NCBI RefSeq assembly: GCF_053078305.1
Contig: NZ_CP166879.1
Strand: one strand, 5' to 3'
Length of the DNA: 64,000 nucleotides
Made by a program: the position numbers and the translations under genes. The first letter of the stretch is position 1; each line of letters opens with the position of its first letter. This document shows positions 27,214 to 27,964 of the stretch, piece by piece. The notes under the pieces were generated by a model. That model was not told where the DNA came from. It made no database searches and saw only the letters and a program-made list of their open reading frames with translations.

Positions 27214-27771
27214 TTATCCTTCGACAAAAGCCATCCCTGTAAACGTTCGTCGCGGGTTGCCACGTTCAATCTGGTGATGGAACATTCGCCGCTGTGATTT
27301 TAGCGCCGCGCTATTTTCCTGTTGCTGCTGCTCCAGCCTCCAGGCAATCAGCAATCGCGCCAGCCGTTTGTTAGCATGCTGGCTGCGCTCTGACTGAACC
27401 TTCACGCTAATACCGGATGCCAGATGCGTGGCGCGTACCGCCAAGTCGGTTTTATTGACATGTTGACCGCCCGGCCCCGACGAACGCAGCGTCTCATACC
27501 GGATCGCATCGGATTGCTCCTGCTCATCAGCGGTAAAACGCCCAATGCCCAGAAACCAGTTTTTGCGCCCATGATGAGGCCGATACGGACTCGGACAAAT
27601 CCACTGAATAGTGCCACACCAGCTTTCGCTTAATGCCCATGCGTTATCGCCATCCAGAGAAACCAGCGCCGAACGCAGCGTGTCAGAGTAGCAGCCCGTT
27701 TCTGTTTCCAGCACCGTTACCGCGACGTCTTGTCGGGTAAAAACGACCAACAGAGAAGAACGCTGCGCCAA
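27214..27771 (-). pseudogene. prfH: Peptide chain release factor homolog PrfH, 5' region replaced or deleted
   Basis: 185 aa ORF with GGQ motif ([11 protein letters not shown]); the N-terminus does not look native and overlaps the rtcB-like fragment in another frame. Confidence 0.55.
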
Positions 27772-27964
27772 TCGGGTAGCCGCGTCCGGGGTGTAAATCT
27801 GGCATCCCCACTACGCGCTGCATGTTGGGTAAATTTGCCGTGGTGTGTAATTGTTGGATCGCTAATCTCTCGATCCACAGGTCATTAGATGCGATGGTAA
27901 ATACCGCATCGGATAAGGGACGAATATATTTGCCCATGTACCATTCCGTAAATAGACTCGTCAT
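27683..27964 (-). pseudogene. ykfJ: RtcB-like RNA ligase N-terminal fragment (ykfJ-type remnant)
   Basis: 93 aa ORF containing [18 protein letters not shown] (RtcB N-terminal metal-site motif) and nothing further of the enzyme. Confidence 0.5.

Follow-up and report, generated by a model that had tools for sequence, protein, structure and literature searches.

A remnant of the Escherichia coli rtcB2-prfH operon left by a 1027-bp deletion between pepD and yafP

Two overlapping reading frames between pepD and yafP resemble an RNA ligase and a peptide release factor; do they still encode a ribosome-rescue module, or are they what a deletion has left of one? Where the module is intact and colicin E3 or CdiA-CT has cleaved 16S rRNA between A1493 and G1494, PrfH binds the damaged ribosome, entering its A site, and frees the nascent peptide, and RtcB2 afterwards re-ligates the 16S rRNA (PMC9304027). 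We followed this question in a stretch of 64,000 nucleotides from contig NZ_CP166879.1 of assembly GCF_053078305.1 (hereafter, the window). The present analysis establishes the deletion described below and where it begins and ends, shows that the allele is that of K-12, and gives its frequency; what the intact module does, and the loss of function in truncated ones, are taken from the literature.

Identity and setting of the two reading frames

The region under study (27214-27964, minus strand) lies between pepD (25700..27157, plus strand), a conserved flank that anchors the chromosomal position, and yafP (28183..28635, minus strand), the conserved flank on the opposite side. The list of open reading frames (ORFs) places here an RtcB ORF of 93 amino acids (27683-27964) and a PrfH ORF of 185 amino acids with a TTG start (27214-27771), both on the minus strand and overlapping each other. 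The PrfH ORF matched the release_prfH model TIGR03072 above its curated equivalog cut-off (E=2.7e-81, 271.9 bits; cut-off, 166.65), with ORF residues 13-182 corresponding to model positions 31-200 of 200 and positions 1-30 unmatched. Against chain 8 of PDB 7SA4 (PrfH, 204 amino acids), the same ORF scored 385 bits and was near-identical from residue 32 on. It also matched the RF-1 GGQ domain (PF00472, E=2.2e-23) and, weakly and below cut-off, the ArfB-family model NF006718 (E=2e-7). The RtcB ORF matched the RtcB2 model NF007153 / TIGR03073 ("RNA ligase RtcB family protein") with E=7.2e-30 and 104.2 bits, below the cut-off of 407, and only ORF residues 10-78 were involved, covering model positions 1-69 of 379; its score against the Pfam RtcB model, 22.9, was likewise below the cut-off of 27. 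Judged by these profile matches, the resemblance of the two ORFs to RtcB2 and PrfH is far beyond chance. The first-pass annotation, made from the letters alone, had called the region a decayed rtcB-prfH module, and both ORFs do lie on the minus strand at the positions that it gave.

The reading of the remnant as a shortened copy of RF2 or RtcB1 was rejected, given that the PrfH- and RtcB2-specific models match best. Canonical RtcB (of the rtcBA RNA-repair operon) and the release factors RF1/RF2 and ArfB are paralogues of the stumps rather than orthologues; what they have in common with them is the N-terminal segment of RtcB and the GGQ domain of the RF-1 family.

Reading from the sequence, we found an imperfect palindrome, CTGCCGGATGGCG-TTTAAT-CGCCTTCCGGCAG (27171..27203), between the convergent stop codons of pepD and prfH. 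It is probably a terminator shared by the two genes, as a prediction, and it was absent from the output of a simple terminator scan. A scan of the region for promoter consensus sequences gave nothing convincing: its single match fell within the stump of rtcB2, and shuffled sequence scored as well, which makes the scan uninformative as to expression. Searching 26500-29000 against Rfam at a permissive threshold returned nothing above threshold, with one sub-threshold chance match to an archaeal snoRNA family. Two plus-strand ORFs, of 69 amino acids (27424-27633) and 79 amino acids (27822-28061), were set aside as unsupported, mechanical antisense ORFs over conserved coding sequence.

Immediately 5' of the rtcB2 stump, a dispersed intergenic repeat (27945-28010) holds the first ATG of the 93-amino-acid ORF. 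Its short form is found in the window and in two of the E. coli loci compared (L001 and L002), 72 additional internal bases are present in K-12 and L003, and the part at 27951-27986 also has matches at other sites in E. coli genomes and in a plasmid; the repeat may resemble the ERIC/IRU consensus. In the window, dinB (28632-29687, minus strand) directly overlaps yafP (28183-28635, minus strand). The yafN-yafO toxin-antitoxin pair, which lies between these two genes in K-12, is absent from the window, and its presence varies among E. coli strains without tracking the rtcB2-prfH deletion. Further along (29758-32227), a LafU-like ORF on the minus strand abuts a FlhA-like ORF that lacks its N terminus (plus strand, 30488-32227). 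The same lafU/lfhA arrangement is present in K-12, where both are annotated as pseudogenes, and is presumably the scar of a deleted Flag-2 lateral flagellar cluster. It constitutes a second large deletion remnant at most 3 kb from the rtcB2-prfH remnant. Some intact operons have an additional gene, annotated as "metal-dependent hydrolase," next to prfH, on the flank that pepD occupies in the window.

The deletion, its distribution, and its origin

We aligned window positions 27100-28200 to the intact locus L001 (NZ_AP021890), in which prfH (204 amino acids) and rtcB2 (379 amino acids) form an operon with a 4-bp stop/start overlap. The alignment consisted of two collinear blocks, with 1027 bases between them present in L001 only. 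Lost with these bases are codons 69-379 of rtcB2, codons 1-31 of prfH, and the overlap between the two genes. Because 1027 is of the form 3n+1, what is left of one gene continues into the other in a different frame.

What remains of rtcB2 is a ykfJ-type pseudogene (27734..27937, minus strand; NF007153, collinearity, and PGAP annotation) comprising native codons 1-68 of 379 (MGKYIRPL...GRFYP), from M1 (ATG at 27937) to P68 (27734-27736), and collinear with RtcB2 residues 1-68 of L001 and ATCC 25922. Intact alleles begin with MGKY or MGNY, and the NCBIfam match starts at ORF residue 10. The nine codons upstream of the native ATG (MTSLFTEWY; 27938..27964, minus strand) are spurious, lying within the dispersed intergenic repeat and not belonging to RtcB2. 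Downstream of P68, the ORF runs on through a non-native tail of 16 codons and a stop (27683..27733, minus strand) that come from prfH sequence translated in the frame of rtcB2, with the out-of-frame codons at 27733-27686 and the stop at 27683-27685. The prfH remnant (27214..27735, minus strand; TIGR03072 and near-identity to PDB 7SA4) comprises native codons 32-204 and the stop: 173 codons run from R32 (27733-27735) to G204, with the stop at 27214-27216. The GGQ motif is retained at 27463-27471. Ahead of R32, the 12 codons that begin with the TTG at 27771 (27736..27771, minus strand) are a non-native N-terminal extension, rtcB2 sequence read in the prfH frame.

These results agree with the first-pass annotation in all but one respect. 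It had described the RtcB stump as running in another frame into a PrfH ORF, which the length of the deletion and a codon-by-codon reading of the junction bear out. It had also reported that this ORF keeps GGQ behind a non-native N terminus, and had proposed an internal deletion fusing the two genes, to be checked by alignment to intact rtcB-prfH loci of other E. coli; in that alignment, a single 1027-bp deletion separates the window from the intact operon, and neither ORF is full length. Its estimate that the first 90 or so codons of the ligase remain has to be lowered to 68, since the 93-codon ORF is made up of 9 spurious 5' codons, 68 native ones, and 16 frameshifted ones.

The junction (27731..27739) coincides with a direct repeat of 9 bp, TG(T/C)CGGGTA, which is imperfect and of which one copy, TGTCGGGTA, remains. 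In the intact operon of ATCC 25922 (L006), 1027 bp separate the prfH copy, TGTCGGGTA, from the rtcB2 copy, TGCCGGGTA. This arrangement suggests deletion by a short-repeat mechanism, such as replication slippage or illegitimate recombination. The variable base of the repeat, 27733, is T in the window, L002, L003, L007, L008 (a BL21 derivative), and L011 (O157), and C in K-12, L005, L009, and L012.

K-12 MG1655 carries the pseudogenes ykfJ (b0235) and prfH (b0236) between yafP and pepD, and in a multiple alignment the gap occupied identical columns in the window, K-12, L002, and L003. In all deletion-bearing records that we compared, PGAP describes rtcB2 as "incomplete; missing C-terminus" (for example, in L002 and L003) and prfH as "missing N-terminus." The window allele is the K-12-type deletion allele, which is also carried by O157:H7 and BL21. 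This pseudogene is already known: a deletion of approximately 1,000 nucleotides was reported in K-12, W3110, and O157:H7 relative to CFT073, 042, and UTI89 (Baranov 2006, PMC1586002), and both proteins were considered presumably inactive in K-12 and its derivatives owing to the deletion (Tian 2022, PMC9304027).

Across 5426 complete E. coli genomes, with probes counted at a coverage of at least 80%, a 120-nucleotide probe centered on the junction was found in 2689 genomes and the deleted 1027-bp segment in 2675. About half of E. coli is thus intact and about half deleted, and a few dozen genomes are in other states. The exact 30-nucleotide junction, with Y at the polymorphic base, had no match when one representative genome per bacterial species was searched, a negative that is uninformative about the allele beyond the E. 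coli genomes of the collection. No complete E. coli genome exceeded 97.6% identity to the window over the 1.1-kb locus (27100-28200) or 98.9% over 24 kb (20000-44000), so that the window lineage, which may be Shigella or a divergent E. coli, has no close representative among the complete E. coli genomes of the collection. Its closest relative over the 24 kb, at 98.9% identity, was L005. In that genome, a pseudogene of an ISAs1 transposase is found downstream of yafV together with a gene for an "integrating conjugative element protein" (21442-23306, approximately window 41440-43300).

Did all of these deletion alleles descend from one event? We compared 18 loci, of which 11 were deletion alleles and 7 were intact. 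Base 27791 was G in 10 of the 11 deletion alleles and A in all seven intact ones, and the rtcB2 side of the junction was otherwise nearly uniform among the deletion alleles. On the prfH side, the haplotypes of the deletion alleles formed a mosaic, some of them like particular intact alleles. From this pattern we infer one old deletion that was probably followed by recombination on the prfH side, with the two junction variants and the mosaic leaving a single origin unproven. Alternatively, the deletion may recur at the 9-bp repeat, such that the window allele arose independently of that in K-12. Intact alleles hold both repeat copies, TGTCGGGTA and TGCCGGGTA, and the T form (window, BL21 derivative, and O157) and the C form (K-12) are as expected from crossovers at different points within the repeat; the diverse prfH-side haplotypes, with their likeness to particular intact alleles, would fit recurrence as well. 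However, the two forms are equally explained by one later C/T mutation, and a near-uniform rtcB2 side with a diagnostic G at 27791 that none of the seven intact alleles carries fits one origin and prfH-side recombination. Within a sample that comprises only 18 loci for this question, we regard recurrence as unlikely.

A further question concerns how the two allele classes came to be so evenly represented. The near 50:50 split could be non-neutral in one of three ways: as a maintained polymorphism, in which the module is costly where producers of colicin E3 or CdiA are absent; through repeated loss at a hotspot formed by the 9-bp repeat; or through a residual role of the still-open PrfH(32-204) stump. 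We give these possibilities little credence even when taken together. Were any of the three true, this locus would offer a natural experiment in which to weigh what immunity by ribosome repair costs against what it brings.

Loss of function and subsequent drift

We aligned intact RtcB2 with the RtcB structures of Thermus thermophilus and Pyrococcus horikoshii. The RtcB2 motifs GNDIGCG (residues 71-77), GGGNHF, HSGSRG, AHN, and HGAGRK align to conserved RtcB motifs, and all lie at or beyond residue 71. In established structural work on RtcB, the motifs GxDIxCG, GNHF, HSGSRG, AHN, and HGAGR provide metal binding and the nucleotidyl-histidine. Since the stump ends at residue 68, no RtcB catalytic motif survives. 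The organization of the operon has been lost too: instead of a full rtcB2 that lies directly 5' of prfH and overlaps the prfH start with its stop, the window has neither the overlap nor the two gene ends that formed it. In PrfH, residues ∼9-12 form one wall of the pocket for the 3'-phosphorylated A1493 (PMC9304027); these residues are missing from the window stump, whose native sequence begins at R32. The deletion also costs PrfH a central beta-strand of domain 2 (PMC1586002).

Taken together, we consider it almost certain that the region is a non-functional remnant of the rtcB2-prfH operon that originated in a single 1027-bp deletion and now drifts as a pseudogene. In the sequence of events that we propose, one deletion between the imperfect 9-bp repeat copies would have joined the stumps out of frame. 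The RtcB2 stump has none of the metal-binding or nucleotidyl-histidine motifs of the ligase, and the PrfH stump is left with neither the native start codon nor translational coupling to rtcB2, and with an incomplete pocket for the cleaved rRNA end. With protection by the module gone, the locus would then drift as a pseudogene.

Variation among the 18 loci bears on whether such drift has begun. Within the PrfH stump, the substitution S129L (TCG to TTG, base 27443) is private to the window among these loci; it turns a SAVR motif adjacent to GGQ, conserved in both solved PrfH proteins, into LAVR. In the O157 prfH stump, S116P is adjacent to GGQ. For the deletion alleles in the sample, mean pN/pS was 0.10. 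This low value could suggest constraint, but one would expect it no less if most of the diversity came from intact alleles, by inheritance or through recombination; we rejected pN/pS as a test of function, given that most of the diversity is common to intact alleles. Variants confined to one class of allele were more informative. Those confined to deletion alleles comprised 9 nonsynonymous and 7 synonymous changes, versus 2 nonsynonymous and 11 synonymous changes for those confined to intact alleles, a difference that is borderline in this small sample (Fisher p ∼0.05). These counts are suggestive of relaxed constraint on the deletion alleles. Decay has gone further in some strains: an additional deletion of ∼190 bp lies within the prfH stump of L005 (7215-7749), and in L010 (706-1260) a deletion of ∼165 bp takes out GGQ. 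At L018 (1588-3706), an ISEc20 insertion interrupts an rtcB2 that is otherwise full length.

The same observations weigh on the idea that the gene has been remodeled rather than lost, with a truncated PrfH (residues 32-204, starting from the TTG at 27771 or elsewhere) still being made and acting as a stand-alone, ArfB-like GGQ peptidyl-tRNA hydrolase. The frame is open over 185 codons, 173 of them native, with GGQ intact, and the weak, below-cut-off ArfB-family similarity (NF006718) and the low pN/pS among deletion alleles could be taken in its favor. However, the native start codon of prfH and its coupling to rtcB2 are gone, and so are the rRNA-end pocket residues and the core beta-strand of domain 2 (PMC9304027, PMC1586002). 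Moreover, knockouts of the stumps in BW25113 had no colicin E3 phenotype (PMC9223846), nonsynonymous changes are over-represented among the variants private to deletion alleles, S129L in the window and S116P in O157 being two of them, and some strains, such as L010, have had the GGQ region deleted outright. We judge continued function of this kind to be very improbable. The chance that the arrangement arose through an error of sequencing or assembly, or that it is a site of programmed frameshifting that yields an RtcB(1-68)-PrfH(32-204) fusion, is negligible: the overlap of two reading frames is all that speaks for it, whereas the junction is identical in 2689 independently finished genomes, Rfam has nothing above threshold at the locus, and a fusion would still be without every RtcB catalytic motif.

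The remnant in comparison with intact and truncated modules

The functional counterpart of the remnant is the intact module of ATCC 25922 (with PDB 7SA4 for PrfH on the damaged ribosome), to which the window is orthologous in both locus and flanks. Over the residues that the window retains, the two differ by five amino acids in PrfH 32-204, S129L being one of these, and by two in RtcB2 1-68. Unlike ATCC 25922, the window lacks the 1027 bp that encode RtcB2 69-379 and PrfH 1-31, and because of this lack neither the ligation step nor recognition of the damaged ribosome should be possible. Experiments on the two types of operon are in line with this expectation. The intact operon of ATCC 25922 protects against colicin E3, and knockout of rtcB2, of prfH, or of both makes the strain markedly more sensitive; BW25113, with its truncated operon, is sensitive to colicin E3, and knocking out the stumps brings no change (Maviza 2022, PMC9223846). 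For the strain from which the window comes, the prediction is that RtcB2-PrfH gives it no protection when colicin E3, CdiA-CT, or another toxin of this kind cuts the decoding center, and both ORFs should carry annotation as pseudogene fragments.

To the published picture of the truncated operon, this analysis adds the repeat that marks the breakpoint exactly, the T and C variants of the junction, and allele frequencies in 5426 genomes, together with hints that constraint is relaxed and that decay has gone further in other strains; the published observation is refined and otherwise unchanged. The ykfJ/prfH pseudogenes of K-12 MG1655 resemble the window remnant: they lie at the same locus, with the same 1027-bp gap and junction repeat, and they retain RtcB2 1-68 and PrfH 32-204. 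The two sequences show ∼3% nucleotide divergence, with T at 27733 in the window and C in K-12, and the window is without the 72 internal bases of the 5' intergenic repeat and without the adjoining yafN-yafO pair. In PrfH, the window differs from K-12 by R46C and K164R, in addition to its private S129L.
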